From IMG/VR virus record IMGVR_UViG_2541047715_000004: a stretch of DNA of 64,000 nt; one strand, given 5' to 3'. This document shows, one piece after another, positions 2,517 to 39,375 of this stretch (position 1 is its first letter; each line of letters starts with the position of its first letter). The notes beneath the pieces were generated by a model that was not told the origin of the DNA, did not search any database, and was given only the letters and a program-made list of their open reading frames with translations. The translations under genes and the position numbers were made by a program. The stretch is from a virus. Taxonomy: Duplodnaviria > Heunggongvirae > Uroviricota > Caudoviricetes.

Positions 2517-2852
2517 ATGGAGGAAAACATGTCGAACGAGATGGCGGGCGTTACAACAGAGCAAGTTGAGCGTATTGCCGCGATCGTTGCTCGGGAGGTT
2601 GTTGGCAAATTAGGTAAAGAACTACGTGAAGAAATTGGCCAGGAGGTCAATGATCAGCTGAAAACCTACTTTGGTGATATGACCCCGGCGCAACATAGTA
2701 TTCAACACTCCAATCTGGACAAACTCCTTAACCGGTTAGATTCCATCTCAAGTGGGTTCTTTGGCGGCATTGTTTCTAAAATAACGTCGTTCATTATTAC
2801 CGCACTGCTTTTGGGGTTAGCCGCGTATGGCGTAAAAAGTGGACTGCAATAA
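2517..2852 (+). CDS. membrane protein with C-terminal TM helix (possible holin/antiholin)
   Basis: 111 aa; hydrophobic C-terminus ITSFIITALLLGLAAYGV; first gene of a lysis-like cluster. Confidence 0.3.
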   Translation: MEENMSNEMAGVTTEQVERIAAIVAREVVGKLGKELREEIGQEVNDQLKTYFGDMTPAQHSIQHSNLDKLLNRLDSISSGFFGGIVSKITSFIITALLLGLAAYGVKSGLQ

Positions 2853-2865
2853 CAGGAGATCAAGG

Positions 2866-3558
2866 ATGAAGACTCCGAGAGGCATTCGTAATAATAACCC
2901 CGGTAATCTTGATAAAGGATCACCGTGGCAAGGTCTGGTTGCGAATCCAGACGAACCGCGCTTTTGCACGTTTAAAGACCCTGTTTGGGGGATTCGTGCG
3001 CTGGCGGTGACTCTAATTACCTACCACGACAAACGTCGCGCAAAAGACGGCTCAAGTATCGATACCATTCGTGAAGTTATTGAACGTTGGGCACCGCCGA
3101 ATGAAAACAATACTGACGCCTACATTAATGAGGTGTCTAAAGCCGTTGGTGTAACCGCAGACATGATCATCGATCTGCATGATTACGACATCCTTCGACC
3201 TTTGGTTGAGGCAATCATTCGCCACGAGAATGGCCGAGGCCCGCTAAAAACGCTGAACACCTGGTATGCGGCAGAAGTTATTGAGGAAGGTCTGCGTCGA
3301 GCTGGCGTTGTTAAGCCGGTGAAAACCGTGAAGGCTGTTCCTGTAACTAAAGAAACCGCAGGCGCAACTGTTACAGCAGGTATTGGTCTGGCGCAGCTGG
3401 CCGATGTTATGCCGCAGGTTTCCGCTGCTATGGATAAAGCACAAGGTCATATCTCTAGCGGGGATACAGTACGCATCATCTTCGGTATTGCCACTATTGT
3501 TGTGGCAGGATTCATTGCCTGGTCGCAGGTAAGAAAACACCAGAAAGGGATGGTCTAA
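2866..3558 (+). CDS. putative lysis protein / endolysin-like with C-terminal membrane anchor
   Basis: Start moved to ATG 2866 after AGGAG; conserved GIRNNNPGNL motif; C-terminal TM helix; followed directly by spanin genes. Confidence 0.35.
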   Translation: MKTPRGIRNNNPGNLDKGSPWQGLVANPDEPRFCTFKDPVWGIRALAVTLITYHDKRRAKDGSSIDTIREVIERWAPPNENNTDAYINEVSKAVGVTADMIIDLHDYDILRPLVEAIIRHENGRGPLKTLNTWYAAEVIEEGLRRAGVVKPVKTVKAVPVTKETAGATVTAGIGLAQLADVMPQVSAAMDKAQGHISSGDTVRIIFGIATIVVAGFIAWSQVRKHQKGMV

Positions 3559-3559
3559 T

Positions 3560-3811
3560 ATGCTAGGCAGCCTGATGACAAAGCTAAAAGTTGCTTTGAT
3601 TACGCTGGCTGCCGTTCTTTTCGTTCTTGTCGGCGCTTACACGATGGGCGGGAATGCGGCGCGACGAGCAATGGAAGAGAAGGCAAAACAGGAAGACAGA
3701 AAACGACTTCAAAGCACAGTGGATGTCAAAAATGAAACGGTTAATGAAGTGCGGCAAAAAGATGCCTCTGGTGTTCATCGCGAGCTGTTTGATAAATGGG
3801 TGCGTGATTAA
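3560..3811 (+). CDS. i-spanin (Rz-like)
   Basis: 83 aa; N-terminal TM helix then charged coiled-coil-like region; partner lipoprotein ORF overlaps its 3-prime end in another frame. Confidence 0.55.
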   Translation: MLGSLMTKLKVALITLAAVLFVLVGAYTMGGNAARRAMEEKAKQEDRKRLQSTVDVKNETVNEVRQKDASGVHRELFDKWVRD

Positions 3812-3959
3812 GACGCAGGCTCCAGGCGTGCTATTCTGCGATGCTGCAAATCCTATTTATGTGAGTAGAGAGGATTTTATGACTGAGGAAACGGAGCGAC
3901 AGTTGCTTATCCACAATACGATAGGTGAAAGGCTGTGTGAGTGGGGGCACCTGAACTGA
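3732..3959 (+). CDS. o-spanin (Rz1-like lipoprotein), overlapping Rz 3-prime end
   Basis: Internal ATG of ORF 3627..3959; MKRLMKCGKKMPLVFIASCLINGC signal/lipobox-like N-terminus. Confidence 0.45.
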   Translation: MKRLMKCGKKMPLVFIASCLINGCVIKTQAPGVLFCDAANPIYVSREDFMTEETERQLLIHNTIGERLCEWGHLN

Positions 3960-4183
3960 GTCGATGATTGATGAGTGGTCTCAGTTTACCTTTTATCCTA
4001 AAGATGGCATCTTCACTCATATACACGCCTGTTCACTCAAGCTCATGTTGAATCATTTAGTAATTTGATGTAGATTTATTAGGCATCCACGTAAGTGGGC
4101 ACATACAGGCTACGCATCCTCGTAGCCTTCAACCCCGAGAGGGGTGCCGCAATGACACTTGTGTTAACGGCTAAGGTGGACAC

Positions 4184-6568: not shown

Positions 6569-7642
6569 CTATTCGTAGTTAAGCTCACCGAACAGACTGA
6601 ACATCAAGTCACCATCCAAAATTTCAAAGGGCAACTCGACATACTCATCCTTATGTCTCGGAATTGCGTTGCCGTCGTTAGGGGCATTCTTGGTATAACC
6701 TTTTACATGTTTACCGTTTTCTTTTGTATACGGCAGCACGACAATTCGACCGTGATTTTTTGAAATGATAGTTCCTTCTTTCCAGAGCGTATTGCCTCTT
6801 GAGGTGGTTTCGCTTTCGCTAGCAACTTTAACACTCCAACCTACCTGATTTTTGTCCTCAAACCAGAAAACAAAGTTGCCAACAACCAGTACCTTTTGCC
6901 CATTCCTGAGAGCTTCATCCAGCATTCTTTTTACGCTGGCGAGTTGCAGTAACCGGTTAGCACGCGGCAGAAGCATTGAGCGAATAGTCGCTTTTGTTTT
7001 TCCCCAATGTGCAGCACCTGATAAACCAAAACCTCTGGCTATGCGTTCTTGGTAGCAGATCTTCGCTGTCTTAGCTTTGTTGTTATATGAACATTCCCAA
7101 GTGTTAGGAGCAACGAGTTGAAGTGAAACTTGGAATTTGGGAAGAAAAACAAAATGTAAGTAAGGCATCTCGCTTAGCACGTCAAAAAGGGGTTGACGCA
7201 AAGTTTCGTAATCTGGGTTAATTATTAACTCATTTAATGTCACTCGCGGATCGTTGGCGTGTGCCTTAATTGCTTCGTTGAGCATTATATGCTCTTCATC
7301 CATGAGACGTGATTTGGCTTTGAGTGCTTTGTCAACTTTCAAACGCAATGACTTCTTTTGAAACATAGATAGAGGAAGTTTTTCAATGTCAAAGCTCACG
7401 TTTTTATTCAGCTCTAATGCCGCTTTTCTTGCTTCAGGATAGTTATCGTAGTCGTCATCAAAAGCGTGGTTTGGCATACCACGATCAACATATCGCCGAT
7501 ACCAAGCAAGGGTTCCATCATTACGGAGTTTCAGACAGAACATCGACCATTTATTCCGTTCATATTTAGGCTGAGGCCAAAAAGCCAGTTCGGGAAGGCC
7601 ATATCCTGGAAGTCTATTCATGCGCATGGTGACAATATCCAC
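6569..7642 (-). CDS. hypothetical protein (lone minus-strand gene)
   Basis: 357 aa ORF with no motif I recognise; opposite orientation to flanking operons. Confidence 0.5.
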   Translation of the reverse strand: MDIVTMRMNRLPGYGLPELAFWPQPKYERNKWSMFCLKLRNDGTLAWYRRYVDRGMPNHAFDDDYDNYPEARKAALELNKNVSFDIEKLPLSMFQKKSLRLKVDKALKAKSRLMDEEHIMLNEAIKAHANDPRVTLNELIINPDYETLRQPLFDVLSEMPYLHFVFLPKFQVSLQLVAPNTWECSYNNKAKTAKICYQERIARGFGLSGAAHWGKTKATIRSMLLPRANRLLQLASVKRMLDEALRNGQKVLVVGNFVFWFEDKNQVGWSVKVASESETTSRGNTLWKEGTIISKNHGRIVVLPYTKENGKHVKGYTKNAPNDGNAIPRHKDEYVELPFEILDGDLMFSLFGELNYE

Positions 7643-7744
7643 GAGGCTAAAACACTGATTCTAACATGATCTCCCTTGATAAATCTGTCAATGACATAGC
7701 ATCTGGGGTTGGAGTCAAATTATGTTGTTCTTGGTATCCATTAG

Positions 7745-7803
7745 GAGCCTGTTTCTGTATATAAATAATAAGTAACTTATTAAATATATACGGAAGCAGG
7801 TCT
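7745..7803. repeat. long GC-stem / AT-loop hairpin element, copy 1
   Basis: GCCTGTTTCTGTATATA...TATATACGGAAGCAGGTC inverted repeat with TATAAATA-containing loop; second copy at 55221..55281. Confidence 0.6.
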
Positions 7804-7907
7804 TTTAAAAGACACCACCAGAACAACTCCCTTCCGTTTTCACTTCCAAAAACTGCCACCAGTCGCTATCATCCGCTCATTGTGATAAGTAAGTAACTAC
7901 CTACCGG

Positions 7908-8657
7908 GTGAGCCACATGAGCCAAATCTTTTTCGATACCATCGACAACGACCAGTACGACTTCATGACAGAGTGGAATACCGCTGTTATGGACAAGTGG
8001 GTCGCTGAAAACATTGGTTTGTCGCGCTGTAAAGATGAGGCTGAACTCTTCGAGACGAAGTGGTTTGATTACCGCGACATGCATCCTCTTATGGCCACCT
8101 GTCTGTTTACGGAGGCATACAAACGTCAGTACTCAAATATCATGCTGACGCACGGTCGCGAACACTTTGAAACAGCTCCGTTCACCACCGGGTTAAAACG
8201 CCTGCCTTATCAGGAGTTGTCGACTGCCAATAAAACGTCTCTATGGAAAGCACGCCAGTTTGCTGACCGCTATTGCTGCTCATACGACTACTTTATCTCC
8301 ACCGTTCTTTCCGCAGCTGCACGACGGCTGTGGGACAAGCTGCCGCGCCCACAGCATTTATGGCAGCCAGAACTGATTGAGATATTTGAAGAGAAATTAG
8401 CCAGACGCGCAACAACCCGTCTGGATGACTCTCTGGTTAGCTTTAAGTATATGGGAGACATGCAGTTCAACCCGATTCAGGAAAGCTATTTTGAGTGGAT
8501 TCTGGAGCGTTTGCGCACCATCCCTCGCAGTAAGCGCATACGCGCAATTTTCTCCGCTATCTGGCTAATGGAAATCGTTCCAGAGCGCCTTATTTCCGCC
8601 CACTTTCCAGAAGAACTGGAAGAAGCACGGCGGTTTATTGATCCCCTATCTAATTAA
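7908..8657 (+). CDS. hypothetical protein
   Basis: 249 aa ORF upstream of helicase gene. Confidence 0.5.
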   Translation: MSHMSQIFFDTIDNDQYDFMTEWNTAVMDKWVAENIGLSRCKDEAELFETKWFDYRDMHPLMATCLFTEAYKRQYSNIMLTHGREHFETAPFTTGLKRLPYQELSTANKTSLWKARQFADRYCCSYDYFISTVLSAAARRLWDKLPRPQHLWQPELIEIFEEKLARRATTRLDDSLVSFKYMGDMQFNPIQESYFEWILERLRTIPRSKRIRAIFSAIWLMEIVPERLISAHFPEELEEARRFIDPLSN

Positions 8658-8700
8658 CTAATACTAGAAAACAATTTGTTTAAAAAACAAAGGAAAGCAC

Positions 8701-10041
8701 ATGACCGAACTTTGCCATACAGGACGCGGGCTGTCCGAAGAGTTTGATGAAGATTTCCAGAACAGACTGACGGCATATTTTTGTCGTGATCACGAGTTTC
8801 TTACTCGTGCGGGAGATCTGGTTGTGCCTAGCCAGTTTGCCAATGCGGCCAATGCCATATTGGTTAATATGGTTTCGGGCTATTACCGTATGTACAAGAG
8901 CGCGCCCTCTTCATCTGCAATTCTGGATATGCTTAAGCGTGCGAAACGCGATAAGACTATCCGTGAGGAACTATTCGCCGATGTTGTTGCTGCGTTTAAG
9001 CGCATTCTTGCAGAAAAATTGTCCGATACCTCGTACATGGTTGACCAGGTATCAACCTTCGCAAAAAGTGTAGCGTTTGATGATGCTCTGATTAAGGCTG
9101 CTGAACTGAAAGAGAAAGGCGACTTTCAGGGGGCGATGGCAATCATGGCCAAGGTTCAGCAGATTGGATCGAACGAAGCGACCGGAATCTATGACTACTA
9201 CACCTCCGCAAGTGAGCGATTGAAAGCGCGTGAATATGAGGCTTCAGAGGAGTATGTACCAAACAGTATTACAACTGGACTCCCTCTTCTCGATAGGTTG
9301 CTGTACCAAAAAGGCTGGGCAAAGCGCGAAATGGTGCTCTTCATGGGGTTCGCTAAATCCGGTAAATCGACCGCAATGGGTGAGTTTTCCATAAACGCAA
9401 CGCTTGCTGGCTACAATGTTCTGTATCTCTCGCTGGAGGTTCACACCACCATTTTATCCGACCGTTTTGATGCAAGATTGTCGGAGACAGAAATGTCCAA
9501 GCTGGTGGAACGGCGCGATGAGGTTCATCGTAAGTTGGCAGAGTTGGGAGCCACGAAGGGGATTGGTAGTTTGTGGGTGGTTGAGCGTCCGTCAGGAAGT
9601 ATGTCACCGGCAGATCTGGACCGTATGCTTAACAGCATGAAAGCCAACGGCATGGTACCTGACATGGTTGTTGTCGACTACGCAGATTTGATGCGTGCCA
9701 GTTATGACCTTCGTGATGATCGCGCCAACATTCGTAGTATCTACACCGATTTACGTGCTCTTTATGACAAGCATAACGTTGCTGGGATCACGGCATCGCA
9801 GACAAACCGTGAAGGTGGCGCGTCAGAAGTTGCCACAATGATGCACGCTGCCGACAACATCGAAAAAGTACGTATTGCTGACCTGGTAATAACGATCAAC
9901 AAAACCGAAGAAGAAGAAGCGAAAGGAGAGGCTCGTCTCTACTTTGCCGGTTCACGTAACCAGCAGGGAGGGATCAGCATTCGCGTTAAACAAAACCTCG
10001 AACAAATGCGCTTCATTGAGCGAATCTTAGACGTTACCTAA
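8701..10041 (+). CDS. DnaB-like replicative DNA helicase
   Basis: Walker A GFAKSGKST, Walker B-like VVVDYADLM, RecA-fold C-terminal domain; 446 aa. Confidence 0.8.
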   Translation: MTELCHTGRGLSEEFDEDFQNRLTAYFCRDHEFLTRAGDLVVPSQFANAANAILVNMVSGYYRMYKSAPSSSAILDMLKRAKRDKTIREELFADVVAAFKRILAEKLSDTSYMVDQVSTFAKSVAFDDALIKAAELKEKGDFQGAMAIMAKVQQIGSNEATGIYDYYTSASERLKAREYEASEEYVPNSITTGLPLLDRLLYQKGWAKREMVLFMGFAKSGKSTAMGEFSINATLAGYNVLYLSLEVHTTILSDRFDARLSETEMSKLVERRDEVHRKLAELGATKGIGSLWVVERPSGSMSPADLDRMLNSMKANGMVPDMVVVDYADLMRASYDLRDDRANIRSIYTDLRALYDKHNVAGITASQTNREGGASEVATMMHAADNIEKVRIADLVITINKTEEEEAKGEARLYFAGSRNQQGGISIRVKQNLEQMRFIERILDVT

Positions 10042-34844: not shown

Positions 34845-34872
34845 CAAGGCGTCCTGTGGACGCCTTTTTATC
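34845..34872 (+). terminator. rho-independent terminator
   Basis: GGCGTCC-TGT-GGACGCC hairpin followed by TTTTTA. Confidence 0.7.
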
Positions 34873-34932
34873 TCTTGAAAATATATAAGTACTTACTTAT
34901 TATTTTCGCATAAAAACCACATAGGAAAACAC

Positions 34933-35133
34933 ATGATCAAAATCTATCTATTGGCAGTAGCCACAGGCCTTTCAGTGGCTCTCATCTACGGTTTACTGGT
35001 TCCGTCGCTGATTTCTACCAAGAGTGATTTAGCCGTCATGTTTGGAGTTGTCGTTGGTTTTGGTGCTCCTGTAATCGGTCTTATTGCTGGTCGTAAGTTT
35101 ATCAACTCATTAATCAAAGCAAAGGGGAAATAA
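34933..35133 (+). CDS. small two-TM membrane protein
   Basis: 66 aa, two hydrophobic helices; 4 nt upstream of SPFH gene. Confidence 0.45.
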   Translation: MIKIYLLAVATGLSVALIYGLLVPSLISTKSDLAVMFGVVVGFGAPVIGLIAGRKFINSLIKAKGK

Positions 35134-35136
35134 GTA

Positions 35137-35967
35137 ATGAAGAAAGGTTTACTTGCAGTTGCTCTGGCGGCTATTTGCACAATGGGTCTTACTGGCTGTG
35201 ATCGCGTGGAGCCTGGATACGTTGGCATCAAAGTAAACAAATTAGGTGAAGACAAAGGGATTGGTGAAGTGGTTGGCGTTGGTCGCCAATGGACAGGTCT
35301 TAACACCGAACTTTACGTATTCCCGACCTTCAAACAAATGAAGACCTACGACGAGCCGTTCACATTCCAGATGAGTGACGGTACTGCTATTGGTCACAAA
35401 ATTGGCGTTGCGTATCTGGTTAATCGTGACAAGGTAACGACGGTGTTCCAGACCTATCGCAAAGGCGTAGACGATATCACCGAATCAGATCTGCGTCAGA
35501 AAATTGCCGACTCTCTAAACCGTTTGGCCAGCCGTATGACCACTGACTCATTTATCGACGGTGGTAAGGCACAATTGCTGGACAACGCACTGAAAGATAT
35601 TCAGAAAGAGATGTCTCCGGTTGGTATTGAGGTACTGAGCCTGTCATGGGTTGGAAAGCCTGATTACCCAAAAACTGTCATTGAATCTATTAACGCCAAA
35701 GTAACGGCTAACCAGCGTACTCTGCAACGTCAGCAGGAAGTTGAACAACGTAAAGCTGAGGCGAATATGCTACGTGAACAGGCTAATGGTGAAGCTGATG
35801 CTATCCGTGCTCGTGCGCAAGCAGAAGCAGACGCCATTCGTCTGCGCGGTGAAGCTCTGCGTCAAAACCCGAACGTTATGGAACTGGAAGCCATCAATAA
35901 ATGGAATGGCCAGTTACCGCAGTACATGACTCAAGGGGCTAACACTCCTTTCATTACAGTGAAATAA
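35137..35967 (+). CDS. SPFH/band-7 domain lipoprotein
   Basis: Signal peptide with lipobox LTGC; SPFH-like core; Ala/Glu/Arg/Gln-rich coiled-coil C-terminal region. Confidence 0.65.
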   Translation: MKKGLLAVALAAICTMGLTGCDRVEPGYVGIKVNKLGEDKGIGEVVGVGRQWTGLNTELYVFPTFKQMKTYDEPFTFQMSDGTAIGHKIGVAYLVNRDKVTTVFQTYRKGVDDITESDLRQKIADSLNRLASRMTTDSFIDGGKAQLLDNALKDIQKEMSPVGIEVLSLSWVGKPDYPKTVIESINAKVTANQRTLQRQQEVEQRKAEANMLREQANGEADAIRARAQAEADAIRLRGEALRQNPNVMELEAINKWNGQLPQYMTQGANTPFITVK

Positions 35968-35982
35968 CTCCCCTAAAAAGTT

Positions 35983-36009
35983 CAGGCGTCCAGTTGGACG
36001 CCTTTTTTA
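35983..36009 (+). terminator. rho-independent terminator
   Basis: AGGCGTCC-AGTT-GGACGCCT hairpin followed by TTTTT. Confidence 0.75.
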
Positions 36010-36815: not shown

Positions 36816-37030
36816 GTTTACAGTAAAATTTATATAAGTTAGTATCTACCTATCATGAAGATTTTTATTGAATACTTGTTACTCATCGTTTCAATAGCTT
36901 TTGTCATCGACTGCATTTTCACTGGTGTCATTCGTAAAGTCTTTTCCCCGGTGCACGACGTAGTCATAAACGCTTTGGCTATCGTGCTCGTATTTAATTC
37001 AGCATTTGATGTAATCAAAGAGGTGGCAGC

Positions 37031-37366
37031 ATGAAGGCCATCCCATTCGCGCTGTTGTTCCTTTCTTCGATCGTTGTGGCCGACACCACTGTTTATCAGT
37101 GTGAAATGTCTGTAGCCGACGTTAAGAATGGCGCTCTTACCGACGTCATAAAAGCACCATATGGAGCGATGGTCGTAGACAGCGGCGACCAGTTCTATGT
37201 TGTGCGTGACGATCGAGTGTTGTCATCCCCATATCTCACAAATCGTAATGGCAAATTAACCGGCGTCGGAGAAGACCACTTCGTATACAACAAATACAAG
37301 GGCTTCTATGGCGTTCACGCTTCTCAGCAAAGCTACCTTTTCGATGACTGCAAGGAGGTTGGATAA
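37031..37366 (+). CDS. secreted hypothetical protein
   Basis: N-terminal signal peptide MKAIPFALLFLSSIVVA; preceded by unlisted 59-aa membrane ORF (about 36855..37034) overlapping its start. Confidence 0.45.
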   Translation: MKAIPFALLFLSSIVVADTTVYQCEMSVADVKNGALTDVIKAPYGAMVVDSGDQFYVVRDDRVLSSPYLTNRNGKLTGVGEDHFVYNKYKGFYGVHASQQSYLFDDCKEVG

Positions 37367-37578
37367 TGGCATTAACACTGGCAGGTCTGGAAATCGAGAA
37401 AACAAGCGGATACTGGCGTGCTAAGGGTTTCAAGCAGCCTGGCATTCTTGAGCGTCTGGAACGTGAAGATGGGTATATCGTCCACCAGCGGCGTGAATGG
37501 CGTATGTACGATCCAGAAACAGGAAAACTGACTACAAAAGCCGGAACACTTTGGGGTCTGTTGAAGAAAATACACTAA
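37366..37578 (+). CDS. hypothetical protein
   Basis: 70 aa ORF; hairpin GACTGCGG...CCGCAGTC downstream. Confidence 0.35.
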   Translation: MALTLAGLEIEKTSGYWRAKGFKQPGILERLEREDGYIVHQRREWRMYDPETGKLTTKAGTLWGLLKKIH

Positions 37579-37624
37579 ATGCAAACTGACTGCGGCACGT
37601 TCCGCAGTCATATTTCATAGTCGT

Positions 37625-38157
37625 CACCGCTGACAGCATACACAATCAACTGCCGCTGATAGCATATCGAGAGTCTATCTCACCGCTCACAGCATACTTT
37701 ACTCGATTTTTTACCGCTGACAGCATACTTAAGACATTGCATGAATAATGTGTACCGGTATGGGTATAACCAGAACAAAATTACCGCTGGCAGCATACGA
37801 AGGTCTGACATATGCCATTAATTACCGCTGATAGCATATCCAAACAAAAATTCCTCAATAAAACACCGCTGACAGCATACGTTCTATCAGGGAGCAGCAG
37901 GCAATAAATACCTTTCACTACAAGTAATCAGCGCAATGGGAATAGAATGTTAGTGAGCGCAAACCTATATGGAATGCACTCTTCGAGGTTAGTAACCACT
38001 GGGGAGGTATAAAAGAGCATTGAGTGGTGATAGATGATTTACCGCTCACAGCATACGTTTATCTCACTATACCGCTGGTAGCATATCTTTAACCGTTCAC
38101 AGCATACTTTTCAGAAAAATAGCCGCTGATAGCATACATTTCACCGCTGACAGCATA
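37625..38157. repeat. iteron array (about 12 direct repeats), incA-like control locus downstream of rep
   Basis: Repeats of CCGCTGACAGCATA and close variants (CTGATAGCATA, CTCACAGCATA, CTGGCAGCATA) spaced 20-50 bp, with a repeat-free gap 37880..38040. Confidence 0.8.
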
Positions 38158-39252
38158 TCAAAGCAGTTTGAGACTATTGGAAAGGATCTCAATCATCTTG
38201 ATATTTTCAGGCGTCAAATTCTGCGAAAGTTCGGTTATCTTATTGATAATGTTCTGTTTGGCATCAATTTCCCCGGCTTTCTCATCTGGTTTTTTGGGTT
38301 CGATGTCTTCAGGTTTTGGCGGTGCGACTTTGAGTTTTGGATTGCGGCTGTGAATCTGGATATAGATCGACCGCCCACGCTTAATCTCGCTGTATTCGAG
38401 ATAGCCCAAATCTTGGAGAGCTTTTAAGCCGTTACGTATAGTCTGATTCTGCGAGCTGACATTCCTGCTACTCAAATTGAGTCGCGCACGCAATCGAGCA
38501 AGCGATACCGGCGCAGGCTTGGTTGGAAGACTTTCGATGAAGGTGTACAGAGCCTGTGCTGTTTCTTTGCGTGGTAGCTTATTGATAACCTTTAACTGCA
38601 AAAGAACCTTATGGTCAAAGCGATATAGTTCGGCCAGCTTCGGTTCTGCATAGAACACCACCGTATCTTTCTGCTCGTTGTAGTCCACGCTATTGATGAG
38701 GTGCACCATCAGAAGCGAGATCTTGTTAGAGCCGTCGACGTTCTTTTCTTCATACGTTCTCTGGAAAGACAGAGTTGTACGCATGATCTTCAAAAGACTG
38801 TTTGTAAGCCGGTCGCGGAGTGTTTTGCGGATCTGTGACGATGGATAGCCACAAAACTTCGCAAATTTCGTGATGCTTAACTCGACACGACCATTAGGTT
38901 CGCCGTATTCTGCCAGCGAACGCACAACGCCCACCCACGTTTTGAAATCATGATCCATGTCCAGGCGAGGACCGGTTATCTTGATATCGGAATAGCCTTC
39001 AGAACGGGCTACTTCGAGCTGGACAAGCTCCTTTGAAGCATCGATCTCATTTGGCTTGTTACGTTTACTGTATTTTGTTCCCTTAAGCGTGGGGACGAAC
39101 AACCCCAGTCGCATCAACGCAATTGGTTGGACTGTATTGTTGCTATTAGGGACAAGTTCCCCTGTGTACAATTCAAGGGAACCTTCTTCAAAGTTGTCGA
39201 TGTTATCTTCTACTTCTTTGTTATTTTTACCTTTTTTATTTTTTGTGGACAT
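38158..39252 (-). CDS. repA: iteron-binding plasmid replication initiator (RepA-like)
   Basis: Gene flanked on both sides by direct iterons; start set at MSTKN (ORF extends to 39372 into iterons); no sequence motif recognised, call is from architecture. Confidence 0.65.
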   Translation of the reverse strand: MSTKNKKGKNNKEVEDNIDNFEEGSLELYTGELVPNSNNTVQPIALMRLGLFVPTLKGTKYSKRNKPNEIDASKELVQLEVARSEGYSDIKITGPRLDMDHDFKTWVGVVRSLAEYGEPNGRVELSITKFAKFCGYPSSQIRKTLRDRLTNSLLKIMRTTLSFQRTYEEKNVDGSNKISLLMVHLINSVDYNEQKDTVVFYAEPKLAELYRFDHKVLLQLKVINKLPRKETAQALYTFIESLPTKPAPVSLARLRARLNLSSRNVSSQNQTIRNGLKALQDLGYLEYSEIKRGRSIYIQIHSRNPKLKVAPPKPEDIEPKKPDEKAGEIDAKQNIINKITELSQNLTPENIKMIEILSNSLKLL

Positions 39253-39270
39253 GTGGACACCTTTGTCATT

Positions 39271-39375
39271 CAACCGCTGACAGCATACTTGATTTGCCGC
39301 TGACAGAATACTAAAAACAGTTGGCAGCATACGGTGAACCGCTGACAGACTATCAATTACCGCTGACAGCATACA
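39271..39375. repeat. iteron array (about 5 repeats) upstream of rep, origin-proximal
   Basis: CCGCTGACAGCATA, CCGCTGACAGAATA, GGCAGCATA, CCGCTGACAGACTA, CCGCTGACAGCATA. Confidence 0.8.

Follow-up and report, generated by a model that had tools for sequence, protein, structure and literature searches.

A two-gene accessory cassette coding for a predicted membrane hairpin and an SPFH lipoprotein in an SSU5-like phage-plasmid

The unit described here lies in a stretch of 64,000 nucleotides of viral DNA (Caudoviricetes; IMG/VR record IMGVR_UViG_2541047715_000004), and this whole stretch is called the window in the following. The unit is found between the gene for a RecA-like recombinase and a block of small genes. 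It consists of a predicted promoter with an operator-like palindrome, a gene coding for a hairpin protein of 66 amino acids (aa), a gene coding for a 276-aa SPFH protein with a lipobox, and a terminator (Table 1). We are very confident of the identity and the architecture of this unit. A first-pass annotation of the sequence had described it as a moron-like cassette in which a small protein with two transmembrane (TM) segments and an SPFH lipoprotein with a coiled-coil tail form a tight pair, preceded by an ATAAGTA palindrome and framed by two near-identical terminators.

Table 1. Positions of the cassette, its signals and neighbouring features (window coordinates unless another sequence is named)
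Feature	Position	Strand	Details and basis
Hairpin protein gene, 66 aa	34933-35133	+	ORF (open reading frame); ribosome-binding site AGGAAA at 34923-34928
SPFH/Band-7 lipoprotein gene, 276 aa	35137-35967	+	ORF
Terminator T1, ends the RecA gene	34846-34866	+	AAGGCGTCC-TGT-GGACGCCTT then TTTTATC; terminator scan, fold
Sigma70-like promoter (predicted)	34875-34903	+	-35 TTGAAA 34875-34880, 17-nt spacer, -10 TATTAT 34898-34903
Operator-like palindrome	34885-34900 (site 34881-34900)		ATAAGTA-CT-TACTTAT; overlaps promoter spacer and -10
Terminator T2, right indel border	35984-36003	+	AGGCGTCC-AGTT-GGACGCCT then TTTTTATC; direct repeat of T1
Examples of the palindromic motif	11319, 14835, 17879, 22699, 30096, 34885, 40341, 45025, 49741, 54578		49741 is a perfect copy
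Pair in P1-like plasmid NZ_CP095126	3738-4782 of the stretch examined		P1 counterpart 7473-8930
RecA-like recombinase gene, 779 aa	32502-34841	+	Pfam Intein_splicing residues 73-486, LAGLIDADG_3 residues 279-356
Downstream unit	36855-37578	+	59-aa two-TM peptide, 111-aa signal-peptide (secreted) protein, Cra-like protein
Strong hairpin	37587-37610		TGACTGCGG..CCGCAGTCA; terminator score on both strands
Iteron-like repeats	37621-38159		11 copies of ~22 nt, core ACCGCTGACAGCATA; beside repA, overlapping its start
repA, Rep3-type RepA	38158-39372	-	

The region shares 98.8% identity with Escherichia phage CMS-2020a, 94% with the phage-plasmid Cyrano (pLF82) and 79% with Salmonella phage SSU5, and E. 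coli plasmids of ~107-112 kb match it at up to 99.8% identity. Yersinia pestis plasmids (~94-137 kb) have the segment too, and so do Salmonella plasmids belonging to the SSU5-like family. In PLSDB 394 of the 410 matching plasmids are non-mobilizable, and those examined are typed as IncFIB. Judged by these matches the window is an SSU5-like phage-plasmid.

The two ORFs of the cassette are in the same frame and are separated by 3 nt. The product of the second one matches the Pfam family Band_7 (PF01145) over residues 23-209 with E=2.6e-30, i.e., 106.2 bits against a cut-off of 23.6, which upholds its assignment as an SPFH protein; it also matches phrog_200, 'lipoprotein', at 3e-108. The structure predicted by AlphaFold2 (AF2; mean predicted local distance difference test score, pLDDT, 79.8) has the strands and helices of the SPFH domain at residues 20-176 followed by a 65-residue helix at 179-243. 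This helix, together with a weak match to the Flotillin (Flot) coiled-coil family of Pfam, agrees with the coiled-coil tail proposed in the first-pass annotation. The C-terminus carries a conserved KWNGxLP...PFIxVK motif and is modelled with low confidence. It should be noted that the alignment used for the model is shallow, since a second homologue search started from it gave essentially the same sequences, all with at least 65% identity. Foldseek searches of the PDB with the model gave HflC (8.9e-15), HflK, prohibitin-2/-1 and erlin1/2 as the best matches, with E-values of 1e-14 to 1e-13, and stomatin, flotillin, QmcA and the vault protein at lower ranks. There were 70 PDB matches at E<=1e-3, and all those listed are SPFH proteins or the related vault protein. 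When a profile of the family was compared with the PDB sequences the best match was prohibitin-1 (5e-7, residues 14-234).

The N-terminus of the SPFH protein, MKKGLLAVALAAICTMGLTG followed by CD, contains a lipobox, LTG before C21, with Asp22 at position +2; the criterion used was [LVI][ASTVI][GAS]C in a signal peptide, plus Asp at +2. Cys21 is invariant in 10 distant phage homologues, and Cys-Asp-Arg is found in 98 of the 115 SPFH homologues which have a lipobox. According to the +2 rule of E. coli an Asp in this position keeps lipoproteins in the inner membrane (Lol avoidance), and on this basis the SPFH lipoprotein is predicted to be retained there. In some Sphingomonas homologues an N-terminal TM helix replaces the lipobox, as in HflK/C. 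The top three groups of Foldseek matches are SPFH cages facing the non-cytoplasmic side (periplasm, intermembrane space and lumen of the endoplasmic reticulum), an orientation which matches the one predicted for an exported lipoprotein. We consider it likely that the SPFH lipoprotein sits in the inner membrane on the periplasmic side.

For the 66-aa protein the PHROG match is phrog_1130, 'membrane protein' (4e-25). In Pfam it has no family at E<=0.01, and Pfam domains are absent from all of its listed homologues. It contains two hydrophobic segments, and the AF2 model (pLDDT 86.9) is a two-helix hairpin, H2-28 and H32-65; the protein is thus predicted to be a helical hairpin in the inner membrane with both termini in the cytoplasm (N-in/C-in). 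The turn, which would be periplasmic, contains a P-x-L-I-S-x-K-D motif kept in 119 of 120 homologues, and P24, S28 and P46 are invariant among 25 homologues. The two ORFs, the Band_7 match, the lipobox and the modelled hairpin thus bear out the pair as it was first described. NfeD had been named as a family to look for in it, and the small partner has neither an NfeD nor an OB domain.

The known system which comes closest in structure is HflK/HflC (PDB 7vhq, 7wi3, 9cz2), which the phage SPFH protein matches from end to end, the long wall helix included (Foldseek E-values 9e-15 and 3e-14). The SPFH domain of HflK/HflC is on the periplasmic side of the inner membrane, as is predicted for the phage protein. 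However, the sequence identity is only 16-18%, and HflK and HflC are two side-by-side SPFH paralogues with a type-II N-terminal TM helix, whereas the phage unit has a single SPFH gene, a lipobox Cys and the 66-aa hairpin. We rejected the possibility that the phage protein is HflK or HflC, because the scores with the equivalog HMMs (TIGR01932, TIGR01933) are far below the cut-offs: 30.2 against 134.4 bits for hflC and 18.7 against 159.4 for hflK. There is also a historical link between hfl and phage lysogeny (PMC1838920).

PHB1/PHB2 gave the best profile match in the PDB and are of similar size (~272 aa). The similarity is distant only, and PHB differs in having an N-terminal TM helix and in being hetero-oligomeric; to our knowledge it has no small hairpin partner. 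For prohibitin and for the bacterial 'p-prohibitin' SPFH4 a cage on the non-cytoplasmic side and an AAA protease as partner have been described (PMC2636767).

The SPFH-NfeD operons (QmcA-YbbJ, PDB 8z5g; YqiK-YqiJ; FloT-YuaF) likewise have a gene for a small membrane protein directly before the SPFH gene, in an order kept over large distances, and QmcA is found as a match to the phage SPFH protein both by Foldseek and by the profile. The NfeD partner, however, is made of TM helices and a C-terminal OB-fold, whereas the phage partner has 66 aa, two helices and no OB-fold, and the SPFH domains of the QmcA/flotillin type face the cytoplasm while that of the phage protein is predicted to be periplasmic. 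As the partner is without an NfeD domain the unit is not an SPFH-NfeD operon. The unit differs from other SPFH-plus-partner operons in its predicted lipid anchor, its predicted periplasmic orientation and a hairpin partner which is not NfeD.

The terminators T1 and T2 fold at -14.7 kcal/mol (z -4.1) and -15.1 kcal/mol (z about -4), and both are followed by a U-run. Hairpins of the form GGCGTCC-N3-5-GGACGCC occur exactly twice in the 64 kb, and the chance expectation is ~0.1 for the fixed form with a 4-nt loop. The syntenic Enterobacter plasmid OW849304 has a single AGGCGTCCACTTGGACGCCT terminator after the stop codon of RecA, and the DUF2591 gene comes directly after it. The left flank of this terminator, tcacaAGGCGTCC, is the flank of the upstream terminator of SSU5, and its loop and right flank, ACTTGGACGCCTTTTTTatttccgtattatcacc, are those of the downstream terminator of SSU5. 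Such a contiguous empty site is present in 47 plasmids (OW849304 and 46 others) as against at least 342 plasmids with the cassette. In about 300 SSU5-like plasmids of Klebsiella the match is confined to RecA, the terminator and ~80 nt beyond; in the one which was inspected other genes follow the terminator and there is no SPFH gene at the site.

Nearly all cassette-bearing SSU5-like loci have two copies of the hairpin (four show the downstream copy only), cassette-less loci have one, and there is none where the gene pair sits in other phage backbones. Since it is thus present without the cassette, and absent with the gene pair in other backbones, the terminator is part of the SSU5 backbone and not of the mobile gene pair. 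A terminator travelling with the cassette was considered and rejected, because the hairpin is absent wherever the pair sits in non-SSU5 phages. The bracketing terminators which had been pointed out are present, and they are the only two of their kind in the window, but they do not belong to the pair which they bracket. That the unit between the recombinase gene and the small-gene block is an accessory one is confirmed by the empty sites, which also mean that the pair is not universally conserved. Because sister plasmids have the exact empty site we regard the unit as a true accessory cassette, whose borders are two copies of a terminator of the backbone, that of RecA. The indel may go back to an insertion at the RecA terminator or else to a deletion that joined the two repeats. 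There is no anomaly in base composition: the GC content is 0.42-0.48 across the cassette and 0.45-0.50 upstream.

Two variants of the locus should be mentioned. In pGS04EC-1 (NZ_CP079773; 5232-5480 of the stretch examined) an apparent transposase fragment of an insertion sequence (IS) interrupts the hairpin gene after ~22 codons, and the SPFH gene was not found in the remaining sequence of this plasmid. In a protein from a Logan contig of 9.7 kb (P0018, 303 aa) Band_7 is joined to DUF7238, a domain otherwise encoded by the gene that follows the cassette, which suggests a deletion that fused the SPFH gene to its neighbour and removed T2.

The SPFH lipoprotein is found by tblastn in 413 phage records. 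The temperate carriers include the P2-like phage P88, phiP27, Stx2 phages, lambdoid/Stx elements and P1-like plasmids, and the pair is present in at least four unrelated temperate backbones. Among the strictly virulent carriers are N4 (65% identity), PVP-SE1 and rV5-like phages (47%), Pseudomonas Bruynoghevirus, Erwinia Kolesnikvirus, phiCbK, Lak megaphages and crAss-like phages. With the 66-aa protein tblastn gave only 6 close relatives, and for this reason the linkage of the two genes was followed with a custom HMM and a hydropathy script. A two-TM ORF lies directly upstream of the SPFH gene in SSU5, Cyrano, P88, phiP27, Klebsiella P12620-1, N4, Vibrio CKB-S1 and Burkholderia vB_SR1, and one gene removed from it in PVP-SE1. 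With the hairpin HMM the partner is detected directly before the SPFH gene in 79 of 80 IMG/VR loci. Among loci in GTDB genomes 33 of 80 have an upstream two-TM ORF, reaching Dyella, Pseudomonas, Caulobacterales and Sphingomonadales; this linkage was not seen there for the Bacteroidales SPFH homologues. An SPFH homologue is present in 737 of 5,426 complete E. coli genomes, about equally on chromosomes and plasmids, and the SSU5-type cassette in 195.

In P1-like plasmids the pair fills the slot between trnT and trnI (tRNA-Thr and tRNA-Ile) of the C1-controlled ban operon, where P1 has plp-upl-tciABC. This is a second variable slot occupied by the same module. It would be wrong to equate the pair with P1 upl/plp, as plp of P1 codes for a 125-aa lipoprotein on the other strand; both plp and upl were non-essential in a P1 screen by CRISPR interference (CRISPRi). 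The module is already catalogued (PHROG 200 and 1130; 'SPFH domain-containing protein' in RefSeq) though uncharacterised. The partner gene is unannotated in phiP27 (2816-3004), P12620-1 (3810-4004), vB_SR1 (2355-2504) and the P1-like plasmid (3738-3974; all positions are those of the stretches examined), and various phage records wrongly name the SPFH gene 'serine protease' or 'transposase'. At the level of sequence these comparisons show the two genes to be an old, tightly linked module which moves between unrelated phages. Its wide spread, from Enterobacterales to Caulobacter and Bacteroidales, speaks for a target universal to cells and against one specific to phages.

The presence of the pair in N4, which has an hours-long and unexplained lysis inhibition, could suggest a role in the timing of lysis. 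The cage would then sequester a holin or antiholin, or steady the membrane potential, and so delay holin triggering, and the predicted periplasm-facing position in the inner membrane would be suitable for this. In virulent phages, however, the pair is found among early or DNA-metabolism genes, and in none of the loci examined does it adjoin lysis genes. A recent study of N4 lysis makes no mention of gp19, gp20 or SPFH, and most carriers are not known for lysis inhibition. We regard control of lysis timing as very improbable.

The predicted promoter of the cassette has 10 of 12 consensus positions, is the best one in a promoter scan of 32-40 kb and is kept in SSU5 and pGS04EC-1. The palindrome which overlaps it can also be read as ATATATAA-GTAC-TTACTTAT and is a perfect match to ATAAGTANNTACTTAT. 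Sites of the motif read ATAAGTAA..TTACTTAT, and the family ATA(A/G)GTAA-N0-4-TTAC(T/C)TAT has 28 sites in the window (<=3 mismatches) where 2.6 are expected; none of 100 shuffled sequences reached 28. Nearly all sites are intergenic, 17-140 nt upstream of ORF starts, and among others they precede the SSB-like, ThyX, RNR and SbcD units. The same motif occurs 7 times in a 13.6-kb locus of Cyrano. It is probably an operator or promoter element of a phage regulator, and the cassette promoter probably shares this regulator with the DNA-metabolism genes. The C1 operators are likewise scattered over the P1 genome according to its annotation. The ATAAGTA palindrome is thus found ahead of the pair as had been noticed, but it is not specific for the cassette; being one copy of a phage-wide intergenic motif, it makes the cassette promoter look wired into the regulon of the element itself. 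Inspection by eye only revealed no PhoP or CpxR boxes in the promoter.

Expression of a near-identical cassette can be followed in the RNA-seq data for Cyrano (Misson et al., 2023; PMC9928086), in which CYRAN_56 and CYRAN_57 are 94% identical to the cassette. The values (S1 Table) are log2(fpkm+5), fpkm being fragments per kilobase per million, with two replicates per condition. CYRAN_56 is at 2.32/2.32 in LB, at 4.98/4.89 and 3.48/3.09 after 1 h and 6 h in DMEM, and at 3.48/5.06 and 7.61/7.70 after 1 h and 6 h in macrophages; CYRAN_57 goes from 4.3/3.02 in LB to 7.25/7.42 in macrophages at 6 h (PMC9928086). The cassette is thus expressed at ~0-15 fpkm in LB and at ~150-200 fpkm in macrophages at 6 h (PMC9928086). 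In the same macrophage samples RecA (4.06/4.05), the exonuclease (2.9/2.44), the DNA polymerase (~4.5) and the downstream gene (4.2/3.94) are near background (PMC9928086), which leaves the cassette ~13-fold above both flanking genes. This shows that in the near-identical element the level of the cassette transcript is condition-dependent and uncoupled from both flanks, and it argues for transcription independent of the flanks, in keeping with the predicted promoter and the terminators. The authors concluded that the lytic cycle of Cyrano is not induced in macrophages. Some structural genes rise too, e.g., the major capsid protein (MCP) to 7.4-7.8 (PMC9928086), so there may be a partial derepression in macrophages.

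A moron in the strict sense would serve the lysogen only. Host-associated envelope stress would turn on the pair, which would aid survival or virulence of the bacterium via membrane microdomains or stress tolerance, with no benefit for phage replication. The rise of CYRAN_56/57 in macrophages at 6 h, while RecA, the exonuclease, the DNA polymerase and the downstream gene stay at 2.4-4.6, favours this explanation, and so does the fact that the unit has its own predicted promoter and terminator. By analogy one may add that a prophage-encoded HflK/C-like protein of 25-35 kDa is a reported virulence factor of Pasteurella (PMC9872710), and that HflKC is reported to help aminoglycoside and oxidative-stress tolerance of E. 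coli (title of PMC10434171). Like the classical morons (lambda bor, lom; definition in PMC9928086) the cassette separates two genes which adjoin each other in relatives, has a predicted promoter and a terminator of its own, codes for envelope proteins and, in Cyrano, gives an uncoupled transcript. Unlike them it is silent in the LB-grown Cyrano lysogen, has the element's own palindrome in its promoter, shows no compositional anomaly, and its genes are found also in virulent phages, which are never lysogenic. The macrophage data are, moreover, from two replicates and include the rise of MCP, and the pair is not among the 13 Cyrano morons listed as expressed in LB (PMC9928086). We find a pure lysogen-fitness function quite unlikely. 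The description as moron-like can stand in so far as the unit is accessory, has signals for a transcript of its own and is found in several unrelated temperate backbones. We doubt that it is a strict moron, which the repressed prophage would express and which would play no part in lytic growth, in view of its silence in LB and absence from the moron list, the phage-wide motif in its promoter and the presence of the pair in the virulent phages N4 and PVP-SE1.

The silence in LB also bears on superinfection exclusion or another anti-phage function, in which a ring of the periplasm-facing lipoprotein together with the hairpin would stop genome entry or channel formation at the inner membrane. Exclusion genes are normally constitutive in a lysogen. 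The patchy accessory spread, the exact empty sites and the repeated capture by different phages speak for exclusion. So do the character of the module, which is small, membrane-located and early-expressed, and the other small membrane-protein genes around the pair. The exclusion proteins Imm/Sp of T4, gp15 of HK97 and the Gram-positive lipoprotein Ltp of TP-J34 are also small inner-membrane proteins or lipoproteins, early, accessory and patchy in occurrence. Presence in N4 and PVP-SE1 is compatible with exclusion, because virulent phages carry exclusion genes as well (T4 imm/sp, T5 llp). However, PADLOC-DB v2 at E<=0.1 gave zero defence families for either protein, and Pfam, PADLOC and PHROG searches gave no sequence or domain similarity to known exclusion proteins, the Pfam matches being Band_7 and Flot only. 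We know of no exclusion protein with the architecture of an SPFH cage, and conservation from Enterobacterales to Caulobacter and Bacteroidales phages is unusual for factors aimed at particular phages. Exclusion is in our opinion unlikely, but it deserves serious attention.

The genes around the cassette are those for a 5'-3' exonuclease, the intein-containing RecA, a DUF7238 protein, several small proteins and a Rep3-type RepA. The RecA gene directly beside the cassette is split by an intein with a LAGLIDADG homing-endonuclease domain. The RecA genes of SSU5 and of a Klebsiella relative (1077 and 1050 nt) are without intein, so that the intein is a second presence/absence polymorphism at the locus. 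The downstream unit (Table 1) has a further copy of the palindromic motif before it, at 36838, and its counterpart CYRAN_60-62 is co-induced with the cassette in macrophages, 30- to 80-fold (PMC9928086). A strong hairpin separates the small-gene block from the iteron/repA region, and the 22-nt repeats next to repA look like the iterons of plasmid replication. A scan of 30-40 kb against Rfam gave no match.

The model which we favour can be formulated as follows. The SPFH protein would be exported and lipid-modified at Cys21, and Asp at +2 would hold it on the periplasmic face of the inner membrane. It would oligomerise via its long helix into a ring or cage which fences off a patch of the inner membrane, as HflK/C, prohibitin and erlin do. 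The 66-aa hairpin would be the membrane-embedded partner, either an anchor or nucleator of the cage or a client caged by it, and would touch the SPFH domain via its periplasmic turn. We lean towards such a cage with the hairpin as partner. The unit would be switched on together with the early DNA-metabolism genes of the element, and under some stresses also in the lysogen. The cage would then condition the inner membrane for the development of the phage itself by sequestering or shielding an inner-membrane client. The leading candidate for this client would be a quality-control protease of the FtsH type, and the membrane of the infected cell would be kept competent until programmed lysis.

We put forward tentatively that the pair works for the phage cycle, and not for exclusion or the fitness of the host. 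This reading is favoured because of the conservation in virulent phages, the position among early genes, the phage-wide motif in the promoter and the host range from Enterobacterales to Caulobacter. FtsH is a candidate by analogy with HflK/C and prohibitin, and that it specifically is the client seems improbable as yet. A more far-reaching version, in which phages imitate the cage of HflK/C or prohibitin with a lipid-anchored one, accompanied by the dedicated hairpin, and in which this mimic assembles on the periplasmic face of the inner membrane and captures or re-tunes FtsH or displaces HflKC, must be considered distinctly improbable.

Several points weigh against the model. Literature searches found no functional study of the SPFH pair, and the genome-wide CRISPRi-ART screens do not include N4. 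Oligomerisation, lipidation, topology and the contact with FtsH or with the hairpin are predictions, and the scores with the HflC/HflK equivalog HMMs are far below the cut-offs. The link between motif and regulon is correlative, and the induction in macrophages of genes preceded by the motif is uneven, from +1.6 to +6.3 log2. The existence of empty sites means that the cassette is dispensable for the SSU5 lineage, as might be said of a helper and equally of an accessory or defence function. The strong rise of the Cyrano cassette in macrophages, where according to the authors the lytic cycle is not induced, points to a role in the lysogen. Dispensability, patchiness and induction in macrophages keep both exclusion and lysogen fitness alive as rivals of the phage-cycle model.

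SPFH proteins are universal membrane organisers whose roles in bacteria are still unclear, and HflK/C was discovered through a phage phenotype. The module described here shows that phages have repeatedly acquired a minimal SPFH system, predicted to face the periplasm, of one lipoprotein and one 66-aa hairpin. As it is small, dispensable and present in the tractable N4, P1-like elements and Cyrano/LF82, it could be used directly to find out what such a cage does, what its client is, and whether the cages of phages serve their own cycle, exclusion or the fitness of the host in macrophages. If phages as different as N4 and the rV5-, P1-, P2-like, lambdoid and SSU5-like ones did carry an FtsH-capturing mimic, this would be a general viral takeover of inner-membrane proteostasis; the mimic would stabilise membrane or regulatory proteins of the phage, and in temperate ones it would also influence the choice between lysis and lysogeny. 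Even should the function prove to be ordinary, the cassette remains a clean example of a duplicated terminator which delimits a mobile transcription unit of a phage.

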